Sequence record: PV435126.1
Reading direction: 5' to 3' (one strand)
DNA from: Escherichia phage EPFV3-03/2025
Length of the DNA stretch: 64,000 bases
Positions 1,208-48,132 of the stretch are shown here, in pieces. Made by a program: the position numbers and the translations under genes. The notes below the pieces were generated by a model, which worked only from the letters and a program-made list of their open reading frames with translations, did not search any database and was not told the DNA's origin. Numbering within the stretch: position 1 is the first letter of the stretch; each line of letters starts with the position of its first letter.

Positions 1208-2938
1208 TTATATTATGTCATATATTATTAACTTGTCAATTGTCACCTTGCTAATTGTTTTCATGCAAACGAATGTCATGGCTTATCATCTCTGTGTAAA
1301 CTGTCAATGTGTAAACAGTCTACGCAGGAACAATCTATACGTGAACAGTGAAACATGAAATAATAACAGTCGTTATTGTGTCGAAAGTGTCGTATTGTGT
1401 GACATTGTGTCAGACAAGTTTTTCTCCTCTTTGTCAAGTGCTGCATGGAAAATTTACAATCTGGTATGGTAGCATTTTTGCGGCCCCGTTTACATGCATG
1501 AGTGTATGTATAATCCTTGTTGTGTGGGCGTTTAGACGTCTGGACGGTCAGAAGTCCGCAGGTTAATATCTAATCTATTGGTCGCTAACTATATCCACCA
1601 CAAATAATAAGAAATACAATTGTTATATTCGTAAACAGTAACCCATGTTATCAATCCCTGTATGTATCGCCAGTGGTGCGCATAATGGGTATTATGTTAA
1701 ATTGCCCGTAATGATAACGATTCTCACAATGATAAGTATTCTCATTCATCCACACAAAATAGCTTGCAAATGTTGTGCCACTGTGTGAACGGCCTCGCCT
1801 ATTAATTTGCCTCACTGCCCCGATATTTGAGAATTGTTATAAGAATGAGAAGTATTCCCATTCCGTCCGCCTGGCAGCACTCCAGTCGCTACCGGCTCCT
1901 GACAGGGTAGCACTCCTGTAGGACAAGCACAAAATCTGGGCATAACTGGACCTGTTCAGATATTTCTGGCTGACTCTTCAGGTCTGTGTGGGAAAAGCCA
2001 ACCTCTCCGGCGGGGCAGGGGGGGTCTGCATGGCAGATTTCACCTGGAGCGAAACCCTTAAGGGTAAGATGGGGTGGTATTACAGGAAAAATTGCAGGTC
2101 AATTAAAAAATTTACGTGGTGTATGAAGCCCTCTTCAGGCAGGGCGTGTATTATGGGATGAAACCCTCTTCAGGTGATGATATTTGTGGGTGTGATATTT
2201 GCTGGAAAGCCAGATATGACGGGGCTCCCGGCGGGGATGGGGTAGTACAGGCAGGGAAAATGTGGGGATGTGGTGTGGTAAATTGATCAGGCAGGTAGGA
2301 TATGGAATATGTTACAAGTATGTTAAATATGGAGGTAGGATATTTGTAAGATTTGTGTGTAAAATCAAATACTTATGTGGTGTTGTGGTATTTTCTATAA
2401 ATAATTCAAGTTTAATAGGTGATATTTGTCTCCATCTACTTTGTGTGGTAAACAGATTCTAATTGAATTGGTTTACAAGTGTATATAAAGTATACAAATT
2501 AAAGATATAAGAAACCCCCCTCCCCCCTTCGGCTACCATTCACCTTTTCCTCTGACTGGTACTTAAACACTTATTCAGACTCTTCAGGTTATCACCCATA
2601 TATCATATGGCAGTGACTGGTGTCCTCCGGCCCCTCTTTCGTCACCCGTCCGCTTCGCCATGCTAATGCCATAGCTAACTGTTCGGTTGTTCACCCTGTT
2701 CACTCAGGTGTATCTCCATACCCCTTCAAACCGAAGAGAACAGAAAACCCGAATTACTCGGTAAAAGAAAAGAGAAGAACTTAATTTTATCAGGATAGGC
2801 AAGAATGTCAAGGCATGACTGCTCACTAAACAAGCAAACAGTCATGTGTGGGAGGTAAGTGATTGTGGTGGTAGGAAATTTAGTTGAAAGATGTGTTATA
2901 GGTGCTTCCAGCACTTTAGCCTGGCAGCTAATTGTGTG

Positions 2939-3154
2939 TCAGTCCAGCGGTTCATCCTCTACTTCACTGAAATCAATGTTCATGGTCTCTTCCCAACCAT
3001 CGATCTCAGCACAAGAGTGGAGTTCTTTAGGGTTTACTCCCAAAGCCTCAGCAACAGAGTCTATATTTAACACCTCTGGCAGGTATGATTCATCGAATTC
3101 AAGGTAAATCAGGCCACGAGTGTTGTCAGCTCCACCAAATATTTCTATCTTCAT
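2939..3154 (-). CDS. hypothetical small acidic protein
   Basis: 71-aa ORF starting MKIEI; last gene of the minus-strand block. Confidence 0.45.
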   Translation of the reverse strand: MKIEIFGGADNTRGLIYLEFDESYLPEVLNIDSVAEALGVNPKELHSCAEIDGWEETMNIDFSEVEDEPLD

Positions 3155-3274
3155 AAAATCTCCTCTGGGAATGAGAGTGTGAACAGGATTATACGTTCCA
3201 ATGCACTGGAATTTATATACGTTTGCCTCTTCAGGCCATGCTTTAGCATGATAAACTTGTGTGGGCTCGGTGCT

Positions 3275-3610
3275 TCATAGTCTGCCACCTCTGAACTCTT
3301 CGTTCTCAGGCATGATAGAGAACCAGATGGCTATGATGTCCTCCCACGTCAGGTCATCAGCCTCAGGGTCCACCTGGGACGGAGATAGAGAATCCTCAGA
3401 ATTGAAGTTTTTCTCTGCGGTCGCTTCTTCAGATGTCTCTTTAGGTGCATGTGTGTTGGTCATGTTCCACCCGTGAGTATTCCGGCAACAGCCGCTATGG
3501 ACGTAATGATCATCAGGATCACCACCAAAACCTCGGACAATGTTTTCATTGCGTATTCCATATTCTTCAAACGATGTGAGGATACTATCACAGGAGCTGT
3601 AATGTGTCAA
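3275..3610 (-). CDS. hypothetical protein
   Basis: 111-aa ORF; start uncertain (a promoter-like motif overlaps the first codons). Confidence 0.4.
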   Translation of the reverse strand: MTHYSSCDSILTSFEEYGIRNENIVRGFGGDPDDHYVHSGCCRNTHGWNMTNTHAPKETSEEATAEKNFNSEDSLSPSQVDPEADDLTWEDIIAIWFSIMPENEEFRGGRL

Positions 3611-10566: not shown

Positions 10567-10661
10567 AATTCAGCCCCGCATAGACATAATCACTATAAAC
10601 AGGCAAATAATAAATCCGAATGCCACGCCACCCATAAACGTTAATATTGATGCAATCATAG

Positions 10662-10847
10662 TCAATCAGCCTCGCTTGGCAACTCTTCTACCTTAACATG
10701 CCGAAAAGTGTTACCGTAATGGTTGATCCATGACATCAGCTCGCTTTCTTGCTCTTCCTCTGGGATGAACTCTCGAATGCTGACAAGTTTTAAGAAAACC
10801 CAATCACAATCTGCACCCATTCTACCAGACAGGCAATAGTGCTTCAT
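10662..10847 (-). CDS. hypothetical protein
   Basis: 61-aa ORF, weak. Confidence 0.35.
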   Translation of the reverse strand: MKHYCLSGRMGADCDWVFLKLVSIREFIPEEEQESELMSWINHYGNTFRHVKVEELPSEAD

Positions 10848-10865
10848 AAAACCCTCCCGCCTGGT

Positions 10866-11060
10866 TTAGAATATTGCTTCTTCCATTGCACCTGAGAGCA
10901 ACAAAGAGGTGATCTGGCTAACATTCATCTCAGACTCTACTTCCTCCCCTTTGAAAGGTTCGCGGCAGAATAGGACTGTTTCAGGACTTTTACTTCGAAC
11001 AATATAATACAAATCATTCAATGTGTTGTAGTAATAAGTGTTAAAACGTAAGTTTTTCAT
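10866..11060 (-). CDS. hypothetical protein
   Basis: 64-aa ORF. Confidence 0.4.
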   Translation of the reverse strand: MKNLRFNTYYYNTLNDLYYIVRSKSPETVLFCREPFKGEEVESEMNVSQITSLLLSGAMEEAIF

Positions 11061-11344
11061 TTTCTAGTCCCCTTCTTAGATTTTTGTGTAGAAACGCTTT
11101 CTGCAATACGAGACAAACGTTCTTCTGAAGCCTTGCCTATTCCAGGTTTTTTGAGTGGATTATCTTTATGACCACAATCCAATTGGATATTGGATACCTC
11201 TCCAACCTTGTAAGTCAATTCTAGCAAAAGGTTGTCGTCCTTGTCAAATGTTCTTACGATAAATTTTTTATCGTTCTCCTGAACTTCATATCTGGTACCT
11301 GCAGTATACAGCATGGTGCCATCAGCATAGGATATCCAGATCAT
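11057..11344 (-). CDS. hypothetical protein
   Basis: 95-aa ORF with basic C-terminus. Confidence 0.5.
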   Translation of the reverse strand: MIWISYADGTMLYTAGTRYEVQENDKKFIVRTFDKDDNLLLELTYKVGEVSNIQLDCGHKDNPLKKPGIGKASEERLSRIAESVSTQKSKKGTRK

Positions 11345-11706
11345 TGAGCCTCCTTCTGCTGCAACAGCATTAACTCTTTGTTAGAGATCTTTACTGCTGT
11401 TTTTATTGTTCCGTCTTTACGGAACCACGACCAGAACTCTACAGTGTCCCCACTATCAAGCAAAGCATACCCGTGGTAGAAGTCTTTGTCCTTAGACAGT
11501 TTCTCATCTATGTCTGCATCGACACATTCGTGATCCATAGCATTTTGCCTGAATGCATCGGTTATGCCAATGCACGCCTTGCTCTCAAGACTGGTATATC
11601 CGGTATCTTTTAATTCGGTTTCCCAAACCCAGTATCCTGCAAAAGCTACGACAGTTACCAGCCCCATAGCAGCTACCAACTTTAATACCGATTTAATCTT
11701 TGCCAT
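11341..11706 (-). CDS. hypothetical membrane-anchored protein
   Basis: 121 aa with N-terminal hydrophobic segment LVAAMGLVTVVAFAGYWVW. Confidence 0.5.
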   Translation of the reverse strand: MAKIKSVLKLVAAMGLVTVVAFAGYWVWETELKDTGYTSLESKACIGITDAFRQNAMDHECVDADIDEKLSKDKDFYHGYALLDSGDTVEFWSWFRKDGTIKTAVKISNKELMLLQQKEAQ

Positions 11707-11766
11707 TCTCTCTACCTCTTTCTTAACTTATTTAACTATGGCACATCCTTTGTGCCTCATTGCACA

Positions 11767-12228
11767 CTACTTAAACAACAATTCAAAATAGTGAAAAATT
11801 AACAGAAGTTGAATTACGCCCAGCACAACGGCAAGTATGTTAATCTTAGAATCAAAAAACTTCTTAACTTTTACTCTAAAAGGTTCCTTAATGTCCTTTA
11901 CGATCCTATCTATAGATGACCTCATATCTCTGATTACCATCCTGAACATTAAAGACGGATGATCCTTCTCTGTAACGGAATCGAAAACATACTCTCTTTG
12001 ATCATAAGGGCCGCCAGCTCTGCGTATTAACCTCTCCACAGAGACCTCGAACGTCACACCTGTAACGTAATCATCTATGACAAGTAGTGACGGGTCTTTA
12101 CCATCAAGAGGCATCAAAGTTATCTTTCCAGATTTTGTTAAAATTTCTCCTTTTTCAAGTAAGGTGTACCAATGCTCTCTGCCAAGGCTGTTGAGGCACG
12201 TTTTTACATATTTAACAAACATCGTCAC
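11767..12228 (-). CDS. hypothetical protein with C-terminal hydrophobic segment
   Basis: 153-aa ORF; C-terminal ILAVVLGVIQLLLIF. Confidence 0.5.
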   Translation of the reverse strand: MTMFVKYVKTCLNSLGREHWYTLLEKGEILTKSGKITLMPLDGKDPSLLVIDDYVTGVTFEVSVERLIRRAGGPYDQREYVFDSVTEKDHPSLMFRMVIRDMRSSIDRIVKDIKEPFRVKVKKFFDSKINILAVVLGVIQLLLIFHYFELLFK

Positions 12229-12428
12229 CCCTCATCGCACGTCTGATATAACCACTCTATGAAATCTTGATACCATTCGCCCTCTGAGCGCTCCGTAGGC
12301 CAATAATCTTCACCCTCTCGTGCATTAAAATCTGAGTATTCAACTTTCCACTCCTTTACCAGCTCGTGGAGAAGGTTTTCAGCCTGCTCTAAAGATTTAT
12401 TTTTTACCATTGCTGTCTCCTTTTTCAA
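12225..12428 (-). CDS. hypothetical protein
   Basis: 67-aa ORF. Confidence 0.45.
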   Translation of the reverse strand: MKKETAMVKNKSLEQAENLLHELVKEWKVEYSDFNAREGEDYWPTERSEGEWYQDFIEWLYQTCDEG

Positions 12429-12629
12429 GATAGTTATACATCAGAACTGCACCACCTAAGATGGCTACCAGTAACAATATCCCAGATAGCATCTCAATAA
12501 ACATGGCTTGAAACACTGAAAGGTCTCCCTAAATTAACGCACCATTTTAAATACATGCTCTTTTCCCATAAAGGTGCCTGGCTAAGATCTGCGTAGAACG
12601 CAATCTCTTTAAGAACAGTATAGATAGTT

Positions 12630-12857
12630 TTAGGTGCGGTCTCCATCCCTACTCTCCTTCCGGATATTCTTGTAGTAATCGACTAGGCACATTATTACGA
12701 TGAAGATAACAACAGGCCAAAAAGGTGCAGCAGTGATGATGGTGATAAAATCATCAAACTTCACCCTTCGTCTGGACACGATGCATATACCTGTCAAGAA
12801 TACCGCTGTTATAACGGATATTACCAAGTAACCTATTAGCACAACATTTATACTCAT
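12630..12857 (-). CDS. hypothetical small membrane protein (two hydrophobic segments)
   Basis: 75 aa; two predicted TM stretches then a charged C-terminus, a holin-like architecture but not adjacent to lysis genes. Confidence 0.45.
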   Translation of the reverse strand: MSINVVLIGYLVISVITAVFLTGICIVSRRRVKFDDFITIITAAPFWPVVIFIVIMCLVDYYKNIRKESRDGDRT

Positions 12858-13418: not shown

Positions 13419-13648
13419 TCCTCCACAACTTCAAGACCTTTACCGCCTCGCTCTGGCAGATTACTTAAAGACAGGTAATACGTATAGTCAGGAGAGATCC
13501 TGCCAGACTCTGCACCTGCAGATAGTAAATCTTTTCCCTTAACCATGACAACATTATCGTTTGCAGATAGTCGTTTTGCTTCCACAATTTTACCAACGCA
13601 GTCAACCAAGGAAGGGTACCCTAAATCTGTAAGAAATTTAACTTTCAT
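13415..13648 (-). CDS. hypothetical small acidic protein (MKVK-L family)
   Basis: 77 aa; MKVKFLTDLGY..GKIVEA..DLLSAGA..LEVVEE. Confidence 0.6.
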   Translation of the reverse strand: MKVKFLTDLGYPSLVDCVGKIVEAKRLSANDNVVMVKGKDLLSAGAESGRISPDYTYYLSLSNLPERGGKGLEVVEE

Positions 13649-20475: not shown

Positions 20476-21636
20476 ACCCATGCTTGTTACTTTGCCGTCT
20501 GTTGAACCTGTCACTTTACGATTCAGCGGAACAGAAACAAAGTCAGGATAAATCCGCTCTGCAGAACATTCTAGAGCCAATCGTTTCAAATCGTAGTTAG
20601 GATCCCCAGGGTTCATGTTGACACCCTCCTCTAAGAAGAACAGCACTTTAGGGAACACAGGTGTGATCCGTTCTTCACCAAGACCCATTTTGTGAACTTT
20701 CAAGTAGTTTTTGGTAATCATTCTACCAAAGACCGAGGTATCTAGCCCTAAACTTAATGTGATGAATGGAGTTTGCCCGTTGACAGAAGTTAACGTATTG
20801 ATTTGGTAGAGCAAAGTTTGCATACTATCAAACACGTCTTTATCTGTCATTTGCATTGCAACAGTCTCAGCATCTGGCAACCAATGTTCCTGACAAAATT
20901 TAAGGTTCTTCTCGTAGGTTGCTTCAGCATACTGTGCCAGATAATGATCAATATGGCTCATGGTCTGACCACCATATTGAGCACTAGCTACTGCACTAGA
21001 GATTTGGCTAAGGATTGTTGTTGCAACCCCTATTGACTTCGGCTTACTGACATGGGCGTTGCCAATGTTGAATCCGTTTTCCAGCATATCCGGATAATTT
21101 ACCAAACAACAGTTTGTTAACGGACTGATCAGGTAGTCAAGATCATGCACATGGATGAAGCCTTTGTTGTGCTCTTCGGAGACACGGTCTGGCAGGATCT
21201 GTGTTGATGCAAGATGTTTGCTAAGGATTCCTGCAAGCAGGTCACGATGAGTGTGTACATGATTAGTAGGCTTATTTGCGTTTTCTTTTGTAAATTCATC
21301 ACAAGTACGATCCAAGAAGCCGCTAATATCTGCAAGCAGTTTTCCACCTGCCTCTCTGTTATTATCCCTTGTCTGTCTATACTGGATGTATTCTCTGGCT
21401 GCACATTTTAAACCCATATCCATAAGAGCATCTTCAACAAGGATATGGATATTTTTTACAGAGATCGTGCACTGGTCAGTTGGCAGATTGTTGGCAACAA
21501 CTTCATTAACCGCACAGGCAATCCGGTAAGCTTCTTCTTCAGTATGTCCAGACTCAAGTAAGGCGGACTCTGCCGCCTTGATCACCTTAATTCCGTTATA
21601 AAACTCTTCTCTACCGTCCCGTTTTACAACTTTCAC
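20476..21636 (-). CDS. nrdD: anaerobic ribonucleotide reductase, exon 1
   Basis: N-terminal ATP-cone-like start MKVVKRDGREEFYNGIKV and GFIHVHDLD region; ends ..VTSMG. Confidence 0.8.
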
Positions 21637-21914: not shown

Positions 21915-23003
21915 TTAAAACTCCCAAATTTCTTCTTCAGCGTCGTTAACAGTTGTGTTGACGCGGTAGTCAGTGTTCGACATTTCTTGGTTCGCCGTCT
22001 GTTGCAATGAAGGTTTCATCCACACCTGCATAAACGGTAGCGGGTCCTTTGTTGGCGGCACAAAGTCTTTGTCGATGTCGTAATAATCATAAATCGGTGA
22101 GCAGTTATAGTCAACCCATTCTTTAAGCAACGGTGAATTAAGACCTATAATCGCTCTTCCTTCGCTGAAAATATAGTCACTCCAACCGTACTCCTTGGTC
22201 CGCACTTCGTCAAGAATTTCTTTTAACTCACCCTTAATCTCAAGAAAGCTTTGCTCCCATGCAGGATCATCAAGCAGGATATCGATGATAGCAAAATCAC
22301 CTTTCGAATGCAGCATTTCATCAAGCATAATTTTTTGAACAAGTTGTGCCACTTGAACAAAAATACCTTGCTCAGCTACTGCGAACGTACATGCAAAACT
22401 TGCAATAAACTCAATACTTTCTAGAGCTAAAAGTGCAAAAAGTGCTCTAAGGATACATTTCCGTACAACATCTTCTTCAACACTGGAAGGATCCAGTCGG
22501 TATTTTGCACCAATAACCTCAAGCTCTTGCATATATTTGACAATAACTCCAGATCTGCTCAGCACGTTCTGGTTTTCCTGAATCTCTTCTATAATCTCGC
22601 GAGCATTAGGAAGGCATTGTCTAACAATCTCTGAGTAAGTTAGTGCATGAAGAACCTCAATCTCAGACTGCTTCATCAACAAGGTGAAAAGCTCACTGTT
22701 GGTGATAAATGGTGAAAACAGACAAATGATAGATCTTGCTGCAACACTGTCTGCCTCCCATTGCCACATCAGTGTCTGCACCATCACATCGTAAGTTGAC
22801 TTTGAGCATGTTACGAAATCAGAAATAGACTGTGACAAATCTACTTCGTCCTCTGCCCAATCTTGTTCTTTTTGTTTTTTGTATAGTTCAAACAGCTGTG
22901 GATACTTTTTGTTAATAGAGTCGTACATCCCCATCTGCTGTCCTAGAAACAGCGGATAATCACCAGTTTTATGAGCAGTGTTCTCAGTATTAAATACGGA
23001 CAT
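21915..23003 (-). CDS. nrdB: ribonucleotide reductase small subunit
   Basis: 362 aa, ferritin-like di-iron protein directly downstream of nrdA. Confidence 0.85.
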   Translation of the reverse strand: MSVFNTENTAHKTGDYPLFLGQQMGMYDSINKKYPQLFELYKKQKEQDWAEDEVDLSQSISDFVTCSKSTYDVMVQTLMWQWEADSVAARSIICLFSPFITNSELFTLLMKQSEIEVLHALTYSEIVRQCLPNAREIIEEIQENQNVLSRSGVIVKYMQELEVIGAKYRLDPSSVEEDVVRKCILRALFALLALESIEFIASFACTFAVAEQGIFVQVAQLVQKIMLDEMLHSKGDFAIIDILLDDPAWEQSFLEIKGELKEILDEVRTKEYGWSDYIFSEGRAIIGLNSPLLKEWVDYNCSPIYDYYDIDKDFVPPTKDPLPFMQVWMKPSLQQTANQEMSNTDYRVNTTVNDAEEEIWEF

Positions 23004-34216: not shown

Positions 34217-34510
34217 TCAAGACTTTTTAGTCTTTCTTGGAGAGCTTTTTGTTGATCTTTTCCTTTTGTGGTAGATTCCAAGTGCAGCGTTTTCTTGGGC
34301 GCACGTTTTAACAGTTCTCAGACAAGAACTTTCAGCTTTAGGCAGGTTTAACTCCCACCAACCAAGCCAGTAAAGTTCTGATTCAGACAACTGCTCAGAT
34401 TCAGCCTTACGATACAAGGCTTGCATACCTCTGATGATATCGTCCAGAGGTGTATCGAATACAAAAGCTGTCTTATCGAATTTCTCTTTTACAGGTTTCT
34501 TAGCCATCAA
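34217..34510 (-). CDS. hypothetical protein
   Basis: 97-aa ORF with basic C-terminus. Confidence 0.45.
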   Translation of the reverse strand: MMAKKPVKEKFDKTAFVFDTPLDDIIRGMQALYRKAESEQLSESELYWLGWWELNLPKAESSCLRTVKTCAQENAALGIYHKRKRSTKSSPRKTKKS

Positions 34511-34964
34511 GGTAACCCTCTATCCACGAAAAGTCAGTCTTCCATTCTGGAACTTTACTAAGCTCGCGCCACTCTGCAAAGCAGTCTCGGTAATACGCCT
34601 CTGCCATACCTCTGGTGATCTTATTCACCTTAGCCAACTGATTAACTGCCTGAGCATACTTTCCACGGATATTTGCTAACCCAGGATGCACCGATGTGTG
34701 ACAATCTGGGCACAACGCTATCAGTCCGACAAGCCGGATCACTCCCTCTTCGAAAGTGTAAAGTTCATGACACTCCACTGGGTGTTTGCTGCCTTTACCG
34801 CCGCACACCTCACAAGTGTAGTTGGCTTCTCTATAGCACTTCTTGCGGATCTTATCCCACTCACTCTTCTTCACAGCGTTTCGGAGGTTATTATACCAAG
34901 CTGTTTCTGGGATCAGTTGTACGATAAGCCTGCGTTCAGACTTCATTAAACGTCCGTCTTCCAC
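34500..34964 (-). CDS. HNH-like zinc-finger nuclease
   Basis: 154 aa; CEVCGG..HPVECHE..CPDCH. Confidence 0.5.
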   Translation of the reverse strand: MEDGRLMKSERRLIVQLIPETAWYNNLRNAVKKSEWDKIRKKCYREANYTCEVCGGKGSKHPVECHELYTFEEGVIRLVGLIALCPDCHTSVHPGLANIRGKYAQAVNQLAKVNKITRGMAEAYYRDCFAEWRELSKVPEWKTDFSWIEGYLDG

Positions 34965-34973
34965 GTATCCTCC

Positions 34974-35180
34974 TCATTCAAAGAAATGGGTGCGAGGGCA
35001 GGAACCTGCCTCACCTTGTTTCACAAGCTCATATAGCTCACCTTGGCTTGTCTCATAAAGGCAAATACGTTTACCATTGTCCCGATATACATCCACAAGA
35101 TACGCTGTTTCACCTGCAAACACGACACCACAGACAAGGCATGCTGCCATGAACAAAATTGCCAACAGAAAATCTTTCAT
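34974..35180 (-). CDS. small secreted or lipoprotein-like protein
   Basis: 68 aa; N-terminal signal-like LLAILFMAACLVCGVVFA; immediately downstream of the endolysin gene. Confidence 0.45.
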   Translation of the reverse strand: MKDFLLAILFMAACLVCGVVFAGETAYLVDVYRDNGKRICLYETSQGELYELVKQGEAGSCPRTHFFE

Positions 35181-35243: not shown

Positions 35244-35714
35244 TTAATCCAGGACAACGCCGCCTGACTTTTTGAACACCTCGATCAACTTTTCAATCTT
35301 CTGTTCGTGCTGACCGTACCCTGCACCTGGAAGGCTTGCCCATCGGGATCGGCAAAGATGGATGGCCTGGTGAATACGACCTTCATCAATATCATCGAGC
35401 GCCTTACACTCACGGATCAGTTGCAACGCAATCTTGTCCTGACTGGTAGGGCCAAAATCTGGTAATCCTAACTGCTCCATATAGTGTTTAGCAAACTTCT
35501 CCAAAATCTGGTAACGCCCAGCAGCAGAGGAGGTAAGTTTAGCATTTAACTTAACGTAAACACCTGGATGCTTACTGTAATCGCTAAACAGCTTGCCACC
35601 GACTATGACATCATAGCCCCGATCCTTGGTAGGTTGTCTACCGTTATCTGTACCTTCTGAATATGCGATCATATCCAAGAAAGCTTTTCGTTGAACATTT
35701 TTATCAAGTTTCAT
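35244..35714 (-). CDS. endolysin (lambda R-like lytic transglycosylase)
   Basis: 156 aa; QRKAFLDMIAYSEGTDNGRQ...YDVIVGG...AGRYQ...WASLPGAGYGQ closely parallels lambda R. Confidence 0.9.
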   Translation of the reverse strand: MKLDKNVQRKAFLDMIAYSEGTDNGRQPTKDRGYDVIVGGKLFSDYSKHPGVYVKLNAKLTSSAAGRYQILEKFAKHYMEQLGLPDFGPTSQDKIALQLIRECKALDDIDEGRIHQAIHLCRSRWASLPGAGYGQHEQKIEKLIEVFKKSGGVVLD

Positions 35715-35865
35715 TTTTCATACTCTCCAGTTCACTCATAACGAGCCCGATCAGCACCACTACATAGTGTGGCTATGTTGCACAGTGCATACATCAGAGC
35801 ATATGTAGGTGCCAATTGAAAACACTCATTCAATTGGCTACCGTTATCTACTAAACATACCTACA

Positions 35866-44732: not shown

Positions 44733-44856
44733 AATTTATATTTTTAAATGCATAAATCATACAGATAATGACATTGATATTTATCGTCGTTTATACTAGT
44801 CACTAACTGCTCGAAAATCAGTGTCATTATCAGTGTAATTTATAAAGGAGGGTAGG

Positions 44857-44947
44857 GAGCAATGGTGCTCAAGCGGTCTTGAAAACCGTCCCGTTGAGGA
44901 TGACTCGATGATGGTTCGATTCCATTACTCTCCGCCACATTGTTGAC
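44857..44947 (+). tRNA. tRNA-Ser (anticodon UGA)
   Basis: Acceptor ggagggt/actctcc, anticodon stem-loop gcggt-cttgaaa-accgt, long variable arm, T-loop ttcgatt, CCA; exact 5' end uncertain. Confidence 0.6.
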
Positions 44948-45035: not shown

Positions 45036-45134
45036 GCTAGGTAAGCCCTTTGGCAAGGGCGAGGATTTTTAATCCTGAAAATAGACGAGGTAGTCGTTGA
45101 ATACATAGGTGGTTCGATTCCATCACCTAGCACC
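45036..45134 (+). tRNA. atypical oversized tRNA-like element (about 99 nt; anticodon uncertain, loop candidate tttttaa)
   Basis: Perfect 7-bp acceptor pairing gctaggt/acctagc, D-arm gccc-tttggcaa-gggc, T-arm ggtgg-ttcgatt-ccatc, but about 30 nt between anticodon arm and T-arm. Confidence 0.4.
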
Positions 45135-45379: not shown

Positions 45380-45425
45380 CCTTTAGTTATACTTTAAATA
45401 TATACACACAAAAGGAACCTTTAAA

Positions 45426-45695
45426 ATGTATACACTTAAAATTGTAGAGCGTGTAAATCCAACCCATACTGTAGATTTTCGTGACGATTTCAACCCTCTT
45501 GCTGTAAATCTTCGAGAGTCGTATCATGAACTAAGCTGCGATGCAGTTGTGGTCTTCTTTGAAGACAACTCTGAAGGGGCAGTGGCTTGTGTTGTTGATA
45601 GCGAGCAGAAGTTTTATATTTACAGAGATGTGGATGCTTACTTGATGAATGAGAATGCGGTTACTGTCAGAATCATCCACCGAGTGCCTCGATAA
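45426..45695 (+). CDS. hypothetical protein
   Basis: 89-aa ORF after the tRNA cluster. Confidence 0.45.
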   Translation: MYTLKIVERVNPTHTVDFRDDFNPLAVNLRESYHELSCDAVVVFFEDNSEGAVACVVDSEQKFYIYRDVDAYLMNENAVTVRIIHRVPR

Positions 45696-45751
45696 GTATT
45701 AGTCTCCTTTTAGTTAGTTTCGATCTATTTAGGTTACTCAATTTTAACCCG

Positions 45752-45783
45752 CCCCGTTAGCTGTATAGCTGCGGGGTTTTTTC
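45752..45783 (+). terminator. rho-independent terminator
   Basis: GC-rich hairpin ccccg..cgggg followed by TTTTTT. Confidence 0.6.
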
Positions 45784-45800
45784 GTTTCTGGAGCCTTAAA

Positions 45801-46199
45801 ATGATTTCAGTTTTAACATTGATGAGTAAATACAGAGGGATCATAAAAGGTTTAGTTTTTGCAGCTGCTCTAGGCACAGCATACTTGGGGGCCGTGTATT
45901 GGTTTAACTCTAAGCTCAACGCTGCTTATCAGGAAGGCGTAACAGCAACAGAGTTAAAGTGGGAACGGATCCTTGACCAGCAACAAAAGCAGGCCGACAA
46001 AATTAAAATGGGCCACGCAGAGGAGGTTAAAAACCTTGAAAAATCTCTTTCTGACCTACAGGATAAATTAAATATGGCTGAGAAGGCAGGTAAAGAAAAG
46101 CAGATTATCTACCTCCAATCACCTGAAGGTAAGAAGTCAACACTCCCTGACCAGCTTATAGATATCTATAATGAGAGCATTAATCAGGAGGGCAGATGA
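45801..46199 (+). CDS. i-spanin (Rz-like)
   Basis: 132 aa; N-terminal TM LVFAAALGTAYLGAVYWF followed by coiled-coil-like region; stop overlaps the o-spanin start. Confidence 0.6.
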   Translation: MISVLTLMSKYRGIIKGLVFAAALGTAYLGAVYWFNSKLNAAYQEGVTATELKWERILDQQQKQADKIKMGHAEEVKNLEKSLSDLQDKLNMAEKAGKEKQIIYLQSPEGKKSTLPDQLIDIYNESINQEGR

Positions 46200-46483
46200 G
46201 AGCCACCGTATTATTAGTTGCTTGCTTGCTGCTGTGCGGGTGTGCGACAAGTGTCGAAAAAGAATACAAGATTGACCCTCCGGATGTAGGAAGGTTGATT
46301 GTTAAACCTCCCGAGGGTGCTATGAAACCACCTGCTAAAGCTATCCCTTTGAAGAAAGGTGCGCCAGATGCGGTGAATTCTGGCATTATGAGGGATAATA
46401 ACCTGTCTTGTAGTAATGATAGAGCTAAATTGATCATTTTGCAAGACTATATAAGAACACTGTTTCCAAAGGAGAGAGGTTAA
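46196..46483 (+). CDS. o-spanin (Rz1-like lipoprotein)
   Basis: 95 aa; signal plus lipobox-like LLLCGCA, proline-rich mature region. Confidence 0.65.
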   Translation: MRATVLLVACLLLCGCATSVEKEYKIDPPDVGRLIVKPPEGAMKPPAKAIPLKKGAPDAVNSGIMRDNNLSCSNDRAKLIILQDYIRTLFPKERG

Positions 46484-48030
46484 TGTCTAAGATTTACGGA
46501 CCGTGTTCTGAAAAGCAGAAGATGATCCTTGAGAACGATGCAGATATTTTGGTGATCGGAGGTGCAGCAGGTTCTGGCAAGTCGTTCCTCTTGCAGCTAA
46601 TGCCACTTAAAATTATTGATGACCCACACAGCTCTGTGGTTATGTTCCGAAGAACAACTCCACAGTTGGAAGGTGAGGGTGGGCTATGGCCTAAAGCAGT
46701 AGCTATTTACAGTGATCTGCCTGAAAACATTAAACCAAAGTTCAGAGAGAAGGATCATAAGTTTATTTTTCCACGGTTTGATCCGAGCACTGGCAAGTGG
46801 GACAGGAGCAAAAAAGGGGCCGTTGTAAAATACTGCCACATGGAGTATGTCCAAGATAAGCTTAACCATCAAGGCCTTGAGTACACCATGGTTTGCTTCG
46901 ATGAAGGCACGCAATTCGAATGGGAGCAGATAGACTATTTGATGTCTCGTCTGCGATCTCAGTCAAAGTATCCATCAAGAATGGTTATCAGTTGTAACCC
47001 CGACTCAGAACACATGCTTGCCAAACTGGTTAGGTGGTGGTTGGACGATGAAGGGTATCCAGATCCGGAGAAATGTGGTAAGAAAAGATATTTTATCCGA
47101 CGCGACGGTGAGTTTATCTGGGGAGACTCTAAAGAGGAGTTAATAGAGAAATACACCACGGTTAACGGACTGGGTGTGGAGATCAAGCCAAGACCGTTGT
47201 CATTCTCGTTTATAGGTGCAACAATTTTCGATAATCCTGTCTGCTTGAGAGACAACCCAGAATACCTTGCTTTCCTTGAAGGTCTACCAGAGCTTGAAAA
47301 AGCCCAGCTTCTTCATGGCAACTGGTTTGCCAAACCTGAGGGTGCAAACTATTTCCAAAGATCTTTCCTTCGTGATGCCGATAGAGTACCTCTTGGATCA
47401 GTATCTTGCAGGGCATGGGATAAGGCAGGAACCGAGAGAACTTCCGGTAATAAATTTCCTGACTTTACTGCCAGTGTTAAGGTAAGTAAAGATAGCGACG
47501 GTTTTTATTACCTGTCCGGGGATTATTGTCCTGAGAACGTGGATGACGGTAGGTATTCCACAGGTCTGGAAGGTAAGTTCTGTAAAAAGGCTGGGGAACG
47601 AGATGTGATCATCAGGAAACAGGCGCAGTTTGATGGAGATGATTGCATAATCGTATTTTCTGTGGACCCCGGTCAGGCAGGTAAGAGTGAGTTCTTAACC
47701 TCGTCCAGATCCTTGCTCGCCGAAGGGTTCAGGGTTGAAGAAGATCCGATGCCTTCCAACAAATCTAAACTGACAAGGTTCTCACCTTTTGCCAATCTTG
47801 CCCAACAAGGAATGGTGAGGATTGTAAAATCCAGTTTCCATCCTGACACTCTGGAAGCATTTCTGACTGAACTTGAAAAGTTCAACGGGGAAAGATCAAC
47901 ATTTAACAGAAAAGACGACTGGGCCGACTGTGTAGCTTCTGCGATTAATTTCTTGGAGAAAGAGGAGGTAGCACTGCCTTGTGTGATTCCATCAATCTCA
48001 TCACCTTCTATGTTCAAGCGTTTTATCTAA
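46483..48030 (+). CDS. terminase large subunit
   Basis: 515 aa; Walker A VIGGAAGSGKS, Walker B-like MVCFDEG; followed by the portal gene. Confidence 0.85.
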   Translation: MSKIYGPCSEKQKMILENDADILVIGGAAGSGKSFLLQLMPLKIIDDPHSSVVMFRRTTPQLEGEGGLWPKAVAIYSDLPENIKPKFREKDHKFIFPRFDPSTGKWDRSKKGAVVKYCHMEYVQDKLNHQGLEYTMVCFDEGTQFEWEQIDYLMSRLRSQSKYPSRMVISCNPDSEHMLAKLVRWWLDDEGYPDPEKCGKKRYFIRRDGEFIWGDSKEELIEKYTTVNGLGVEIKPRPLSFSFIGATIFDNPVCLRDNPEYLAFLEGLPELEKAQLLHGNWFAKPEGANYFQRSFLRDADRVPLGSVSCRAWDKAGTERTSGNKFPDFTASVKVSKDSDGFYYLSGDYCPENVDDGRYSTGLEGKFCKKAGERDVIIRKQAQFDGDDCIIVFSVDPGQAGKSEFLTSSRSLLAEGFRVEEDPMPSNKSKLTRFSPFANLAQQGMVRIVKSSFHPDTLEAFLTELEKFNGERSTFNRKDDWADCVASAINFLEKEEVALPCVIPSISSPSMFKRFI

Positions 48031-48033
48031 GTG

Positions 48034-48062
48034 TTGCCAATCTTAATTAGATGTGGTAGAAT
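48034..48062 (+). promoter_or_regulatory. sigma70-like promoter
   Basis: TTGCCA-N17-TGgTAGAAT upstream of the portal gene. Confidence 0.45.
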
Positions 48063-48132
48063 AGAGTAATCGGAGATACTAGCCCTCTGACACGAGGGCT
48101 ATTTTGTTATACTGTTTTGAGGGGTAAAGCTT

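Follow-up and report, generated by a model that had tools for sequence, protein, structure and literature searches.

In phage lambda, Rz1 is embedded within Rz, and both products form intermolecular disulfides. In T4, the genes for the inner-membrane spanin (i-spanin) and the outer-membrane spanin (o-spanin), PseT.3 and PseT.2, are separate and nonembedded (PMC7344957), as are the two genes considered here, which lie at 45801 to 46483 of a 64,000-nucleotide (nt) stretch of Escherichia phage EPFV3-03/2025 (record PV435126.1; the whole stretch is called the window). The best explanation as a whole, and one held to be very probable from the encoded sequences, is that they constitute the two-component spanin of an rV5-like phage. 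Their counterparts in rV5, gp67 and gp66, are orthologous, with nucleotide identities of 94 to 99% to rV5-like genomes, the same lengths of 132 and 95 amino acids (aa), the same position beside TerL, and the same ATGA overlap; apart from TerL, which is intron split in rV5 and unbroken here, nothing of substance differs. The "rv5" family was placed by Kongari et al. in 2018 among the "separated" two-component spanins, with members including rV5, FV3, 2_JES-2013, PVP-SE1, GAP31, 4MG, and Av-05 (PMC6139136). Buttimer et al. in 2020 described the spanins of CB7, rV5, and PVP-SE1 as being beside the large terminase, outside a classic lysis cassette, and remarked that this location makes holins hard to find (PMC7344957). 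Spanin genes beside the terminase are also known from the podoviruses SP6, K1-5, and VP4 (PMC7344957, citing Summer 2007), which differ in having an unrelated morphotype and different spanin families. No holin homologue was found in rV5 by Kropinski et al. in 2013 (PMC3606486), and the holin was stated to be not identifiable for LL12 (PMC6658697), Gotham (PMC7471380), and KPP-1 (PMC9862379). As a member of a known family in a well-sequenced phage genus, the pair is unexceptional and has been catalogued before, and its dispersed layout and missing holin are likewise already published. An earlier reading of the same letters (the original prediction), which described a spanin pair with the terminase and a dispersed lysis cassette, was therefore not new but the published state of knowledge for rV5-like phages.

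The window was assigned from its sequence to an rV5-like Escherichia coli myovirus of the genus Vequintavirus, at least 120 rV5-like genomes being 97 to 99% identical to it in nucleotides. A megablast search with 45400 to 48100 matched 123 phage records, 115 of which cover at least 80% of the query at 90 to 99% identity; these well-covering records are rV5-like coliphages of that genus. The genes on which the interpretation is based are the following:
45801..46199, + strand, predicted i-spanin (Rz-like), 132 aa (open reading frame [ORF], hydropathy, phrog_4297, AlphaFold2 [AF2] model)
46196..46483, + strand, predicted o-spanin (Rz1-like), 95 aa (ORF, lipobox, phrog_1267)
46483..48030, + strand, large terminase subunit TerL, 515 aa (ORF; the order i-spanin, o-spanin, TerL is also found in PVP-SE1)
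35244..35714, − strand, endolysin, lambda R-type lytic transglycosylase, 156 aa (1AM7, phrog_90)

The major data for the pair were the family matches and the membrane-targeting features of the two products. By sequence comparison with PHROGs, both matches to spanin families were far beyond chance, the first product matching phrog_4297 ("Rz-like spanin"; E = 7.5e-49) and the second matching phrog_1267 (also "Rz-like spanin"; E = 4.3e-22). The first product has a single hydrophobic segment at approximately residues 14 to 35, with K10, R12, and K16 on its N side. This implies an N-terminal membrane anchor with an N-in/C-out topology, as judged by hydropathy and the positive-inside rule and not by a dedicated predictor; membrane-protein calls throughout this work were made with hydropathy heuristics rather than with DeepTMHMM, SignalP 6, or LipoP. 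The AF2 model, obtained from single-sequence input with a mean predicted local distance difference test score (pLDDT) of 70.7, consists of a helix at residues 4 to 99, a disordered linker at residues 100 to 114, and a second helix at residues 115 to 129. The protein is 29% identical to the PVP-SE1 spanin gp077.

The second product begins with MRATVLLVACLLLCG, followed by C16 and A17, and residues L13-C14-G15-C16 form a signal peptidase II lipobox. The alanine at position +2, in place of an aspartate, implies sorting to the outer membrane. The mature part is short and proline rich (80 aa, 9 Pro, 11%), and both Cys16 and the lipobox are kept as LLVGC in the PVP-SE1 homologue, to which it is 38% identical. 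The two genes share 4 nt (ATGA), the junction reading CAG-ATG-A, and a strong ribosome-binding site, AGGAGGG, precedes this junction. The original prediction of an Rz-like gene with an N-terminal transmembrane segment, overlapping by 4 nt a proline-rich, lipobox-containing Rz1-like gene, was borne out in each of these particulars.

The assignment is further supported by annotation and gene order in relatives. Homologues of the o-spanin were found in 191 phage records across Vequintavirinae, many of them annotated as o-spanin, and the GenBank annotation of the BASEL genomes gives I-spanin and O-spanin for the pair. The records of ECP32 and HMD-6 likewise label the two genes I-spanin and O-spanin, with the large terminase next in order and a "lysozyme" approximately 10 kb away on the other strand. 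The gene order in PVP-SE1 is identical: after the tRNAs and a hypothetical gene come the i-spanin gene, the o-spanin gene (overlapping by 4 nt), and TerL. As had been claimed, the pair is located with the terminase: the stop codon of the o-spanin gene and the ATG of terL share one base (TAATG), and the spanin pair and terL are packed tightly into one unit that is probably translationally coupled. Rather than belonging to a lysis cassette, the pair opens the block of packaging and structural genes.

The endolysin gene belongs to the replication block, which is transcribed in the opposite direction, and is separated from the spanin genes by 10,086 nt; this agrees with the earlier description of a lambda R-like endolysin about 10 kb away on the other strand and of dispersed lysis genes. 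Its product matched lambda lysozyme (1AM7) with an E value of 8.7e-56 over residues 4 to 154, with AYSEGTD aligned to AWSEGTD at the catalytic SEGT motif, and matched phrog_90 (endolysin) with an E value of 9.5e-55. Hydropathy scans found no hydrophobic segment and no signal or signal-anchor-release segment in the endolysin. Since it lacks an export signal, a hole-forming holin or another release route is needed. No match to the endolysin was obtained in the Pfam-A copy used, even at E ≤ 10, despite the homology to 1AM7, and this looks like a coverage gap in the library and not biology; the 2013 rV5 paper placed the lysozyme in PF00959 (PMC3606486). Such scattering of the lysis genes is reminiscent of T4 and is a conserved trait of Vequintavirinae.

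By analogy with lambda Rz/Rz1 and T4 PseT.3/PseT.2, the two products would act together when the infection cycle ends. Judging from their sequences, the first would be an inner-membrane protein held by its N-terminal transmembrane helix, with a helical periplasmic domain, and the second a small proline-rich outer-membrane lipoprotein. The periplasmic ends of the two would bind each other and so bridge the periplasm, and the peptidoglycan meshwork would hold this bridge in check. Once the R-type transglycosylase had degraded the wall, the spanin complexes would fuse the inner and outer membranes and thereby complete lysis. The missing export signal suggests that the soluble endolysin would be released through a large-hole holin encoded elsewhere than next to these genes.

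The comparison with lambda and T4 gave both likenesses and differences. Like lambda, the window encodes an inner-membrane anchor protein with a predicted helical periplasmic domain, a proline-rich putative outer-membrane lipoprotein, and an endolysin that is a close homologue of R. In contrast to lambda, the two spanin genes merely abut, the i-spanin has no cysteine, and there is neither an S-R-Rz/Rz1 cassette nor a lambda S-like holin. The likeness to T4 lies in the scattering of the lysis genes (e, t, rI, and the spanins) in the genome of a large virulent myovirus and in the rIIA and rIIB homologues present in the relative LL12. The T4 spanins, in contrast, are not beside the terminase, the endolysin here is of the lambda R type and not of the T4 E type, and a scan limited to the membrane-protein candidates, a subset of the proteins of the window, found neither a T-type holin nor an RI homologue.

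Several observations weigh against the spanin assignment and were considered together. The i-spanin contains no cysteine, and the o-spanin contains only one besides the lipobox cysteine (C72), which is absent from the PVP-SE1 homologue. Because of this, disulfide-linked dimers are not general in rV5-type spanins; going by these sequences, the lambda type of intermolecular disulfide bonding cannot be a general property of the family. Such dimers are a trait of lambda Rz/Rz1 and are not known to define all spanins. A literature search found no experimental paper on rV5-type spanins, so that spanin function rests on family features, and the helix model of the i-spanin has the single-sequence origin and the mean pLDDT given above. 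Finally, a terminator-like hairpin lies directly 5′ of the i-spanin gene:
45751..45783, + strand, intrinsic-terminator-like hairpin with an 11-bp stem containing one bulge, a GUAU loop, and then U6 (sequence; RNA fold of −17.8 kcal/mol)

The terminator role of this hairpin was inferred from its sequence and is putative. It ends 18 nt before the i-spanin ATG, leaving no room for a promoter, and none was found between the hairpin and the i-spanin gene. Further upstream are seven tRNA genes and the gene for an 89-aa acidic soluble protein (phrog_8729, annotated unknown function), and the spanin-terL unit may be transcribed from the tRNA promoter by read-through. The rV5 "late promoter" motif, TGGTAAAATA, is present before the portal and tail genes; it was not found upstream of the spanins, upstream of the endolysin, or directly before the homologue of rV5 gp129 discussed below, the copy nearest to the latter being at 13586-13595 (− strand), 5′ of the preceding gene. 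A literature search for Vequintavirinae transcriptomics returned nothing usable. The hairpin is absent from the terminator list in the rV5 paper.

With the two-component spanin regarded as very probable, the point of practical interest is the holin, which sets lysis timing and for which rV5-like phages have only a proposed candidate. Scans of hydropathy, run at two thresholds, showed no coding-strand membrane protein near the spanins or the endolysin other than a 68-aa protein immediately downstream of the endolysin. Within approximately 10 kb of either locus, the remaining coding-strand segments were weak single stretches in tail genes and one 26-aa ORF. The absence of a canonical holin adjacent to either locus, as originally predicted, was upheld by these scans. 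The broader wording that no holin was identified holds for the neighborhoods of both loci but not for the window as a whole, in which a homologue of a published candidate was located:
12630..12857, − strand, homologue of rV5 gp129, 75 aa, two transmembrane segments (hydropathy; 88.5% identical to rV5 DQ832317 94058-94291)

The rV5 protein gp129, with its two transmembrane segments, was proposed as a "putative holin" by Kropinski et al. in 2013 (Table S3; PMC3606486). The homologue in the window has transmembrane segments at approximately residues 5 to 27 and 40 to 59, an RRRVK loop between them, and a charged C-terminal tail, DYYKNIRKESRDGDRT; in its small size, its two segments, and this tail, it agrees with a class II type holin. 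It is the only small two-transmembrane protein found by the hydropathy scans on the coding strand of the window, and a scan at the lower threshold of coding-strand ORFs of 60 to 250 aa found no further small multitransmembrane protein there. Its gene has a strong ribosome-binding site and is 22 kb from that of the endolysin. In a comparison with the HMD-6 allele (57% identity), the loop and the second transmembrane segment were near-invariant and the first segment diverged.

A number of results count against this protein as the holin. It matches phrog_10061, which is annotated unknown function, and no holin family in Pfam, NCBIfam, or PHROGs; the same three libraries gave no match to a holin family for any of the membrane-protein candidates of the window and of LL12. 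The positive-inside rule does not decide its topology, as the loop has 4 Lys and Arg residues and the tail has 5. A search of 5.8 billion proteins together with tblastn confined it to rV5-like genomes, at 55 to 98% identity, and gene context elsewhere is therefore uninformative. The case is also weakened by its position among small membrane proteins whose genes cluster at 10570-12857 (− strand), in a block that also holds replication genes. The other members of the cluster are as follows:
12397-12516, − strand, one-transmembrane protein, 39 aa
11767-12228, − strand, protein with a C-terminal transmembrane segment, 153 aa
11341-11706, − strand, protein with an N-terminal signal or anchor, 121 aa
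10570-10665, − strand, hydrophobic ORF, 31 aa

The rV5 homologue of the 153-aa protein was found in virions by mass spectrometry. On balance, the gp129 homologue was deemed a reasonable candidate for the holin, to be named tentatively, with the chances somewhat against it.

The alternative that fared next best accepts the spanin assignment and places the holin outside the window, in the module for tail fibers and baseplate, as the homologue of rV5 gp31 and/or gp29. It arose from a scan for membrane proteins in the rest of the genome of a relative, LL12, which provides leads only; the corresponding genes are at 21180-21446 and 22591-22905 (− strand) of the LL12 stretch. The rV5 gp31 protein (104 aa) combines a single N-terminal transmembrane segment with a charged coiled-coil tail, and gp29 (88 aa) has two weakly hydrophobic segments and a charged tail and belongs to phrog_1322, "membrane protein." The gp31 family was found in 223 phage records, in all Vequintavirinae genera and always just after the tail-fiber assembly gene, and the gp29 family was found in 373 records, among them those of phi92-like, Aeromonas, and Pseudomonas phages. 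Both genes belong to the late structural block, as do the spanins, and their placement beside tail-fiber genes is much like that of T4 t. This constant neighborhood of baseplate and tail-fiber genes, kept in distant phages as well, would be no less consistent with a function in tail assembly. Neither protein was flagged by mass spectrometry in rV5 virions, and the virion components of phi92 modeled by cryo-electron microscopy include no small membrane protein of this kind (PMC13450770; the gene number of the phi92 homologue was not determined), but small proteins often escape both methods. Furthermore, neither shows similarity to any holin family, neither is annotated as a holin anywhere, and both lie outside the window. 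A match of gp31 to the XhlA coiled coil was dismissed (E = 0.012; 16 bits versus a cutoff of 34.7). A holin role for gp31 or gp29 was on this evidence considered rather unlikely, and less so than any other alternative to gp129. If it were true, tail-fiber and holin genes would be linked much as in T4, and the holin family so defined would be both new and widespread.

A more general proposal is that rV5-like phages, and possibly all Vequintavirinae and the phi92-like group, release their lambda R-type endolysin through an undescribed holin family. It was entertained because three independent annotations found no holin and because the sole published candidate, gp129, is restricted to the genus; it was judged distinctly improbable. 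In the same tail-fiber region, a further protein, with four transmembrane segments, is encoded between the gp31 and gp29 homologues of PVP-SE1 and CR9 (stretch 2501-3570 of PVP-SE1 and 2501-3581 of CR9). The LL12 scan also showed, at 1980-2480 (− strand) of that stretch and next to rIIA, a SleB-like hydrolase with a Sec-type signal peptide (Pfam Hydrolase_2; E = 2e-19), which is a candidate for an additional, exported muralytic enzyme of rV5-like phages.

The 68-aa neighbor of the endolysin was examined as the missing lysis partner, that is, as a holin with one transmembrane segment, an antiholin resembling T4 RI, or a periplasmic inhibitor of lysozyme resembling Spackle:
34974..35180, − strand, homologue of rV5 gp90, 68 aa (family alignment, AF2 model, promoter)

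Such a role would be suggested by its place directly downstream of the endolysin gene, its N-terminal hydrophobic segment, its high conservation within the genus, and a periplasmic disulfide-bonded domain as in RI. The alignment of eleven homologues (38 to 99% identity) proved the most telling. Variation among the homologues is greatest in the N-terminal hydrophobic region, at whose end AxA-like sites occur (VFA|G, AWS|G, and AHA|G), while the C-terminal approximately 45 residues are strongly conserved and contain two invariant cysteines, C40 and C61. The least conserved part thus being the hydrophobic segment, the pattern is that of a cleaved signal peptide and not of a functional membrane helix, in keeping with the small signal-peptide protein that had been reported beside the endolysin. 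These sequence features are the signature of a Sec-secreted, disulfide-bonded periplasmic protein with a cleaved signal peptide. Identity as a lipoprotein was rejected, as Cys14 and Cys17 of the protein are not conserved among the homologues. The AF2 model (mean pLDDT of 81) shows the signal helix and a four-stranded beta sheet; Foldseek gave no match to it in the PDB below an E value of 0.001, and the matches listed were to small beta folds of a generic kind and included neither a lysozyme inhibitor nor RI or Spackle.

Gene context led to the same conclusion. For the 68-aa gene, a separate sigma-70-type promoter (TTGACA-17-TATTGT, extended −10) was found at 35240-35212; it is listed as P090 in Table S4 of the rV5 paper (PMC3606486). 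In SSBI34 and ABPH49, the homologue stays between ligase and exonuclease, and no annotated lysozyme is present within the 8-kb stretch examined. A lysis role for the 68-aa protein is unlikely, and its identity as holin, antiholin, or lysozyme inhibitor in particular, which was considered very improbable, was rejected on the cleaved signal peptide, the lack of a matching PDB fold, and the lack of an annotated lysozyme near the distant homologues in the stretches examined. The holin question is narrowed by these results: the 68-aa protein is removed, the gp129-type candidate is located, and two conserved late-module membrane proteins are available as alternatives.

The last alternative, that the pair upstream of terL encodes packaging proteins such as the small terminase and not spanins, could appeal to the facts that terS usually precedes terL, that both genes are packed directly 5′ of terL, and that no small terminase is among the annotated features around terL in the ECP32, HMD-6, and PVP-SE1 stretches, but a transmembrane anchor in one protein and a conserved lipobox with proline richness in the other are unlike a DNA-binding small terminase, and both proteins match PHROG spanin families strongly, so that this identity was rejected as having a negligible chance of being right. 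The terL gene itself is a single unbroken 515-aa ORF in the window and is split by introns or a homing-endonuclease insertion in rV5, LL12, and HMD-6.

Some further features of the surrounding DNA were recorded. The genes around the endolysin are those for DNA ligase, the 68-aa protein, an HNH endonuclease, and an exonuclease. The 150-nt gap between ligase and endolysin at 35715-35865 (− strand) contains the inverted repeat GTAGGT...CCAATTG...CAATTGG.ACCTAC. HMD-6 has an extra HNH endonuclease gene at the equivalent site, and a second HNH gene is present in the window at 34500-34964; the gap region may be a hot spot for homing endonucleases. Among the tRNAs upstream of the spanins, a 99-nt tRNA-like gene at 45036-45134 (+ strand) was given a 4-base anticodon (atcc) by ARAGORN, with no amino acid assigned, and scored 35.5 bits with the Rfam tRNA model, just over the gathering score; this could be a tRNA that has degenerated or that contains an intron. 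The tRNA-Ser found by ARAGORN at 44847-44937 was not reported by Rfam at the gathering threshold.

The rV5-like phages are used in typing sets, in biocontrol, and in commercial phage products. Approximately 18 "Campylobacter phage" GenBank records (MG0656xx; host, Campylobacter jejuni) were approximately 97% identical to E. coli rV5-like phages across the genes compared, which suggests that they are mislabeled or contaminant database sequences.

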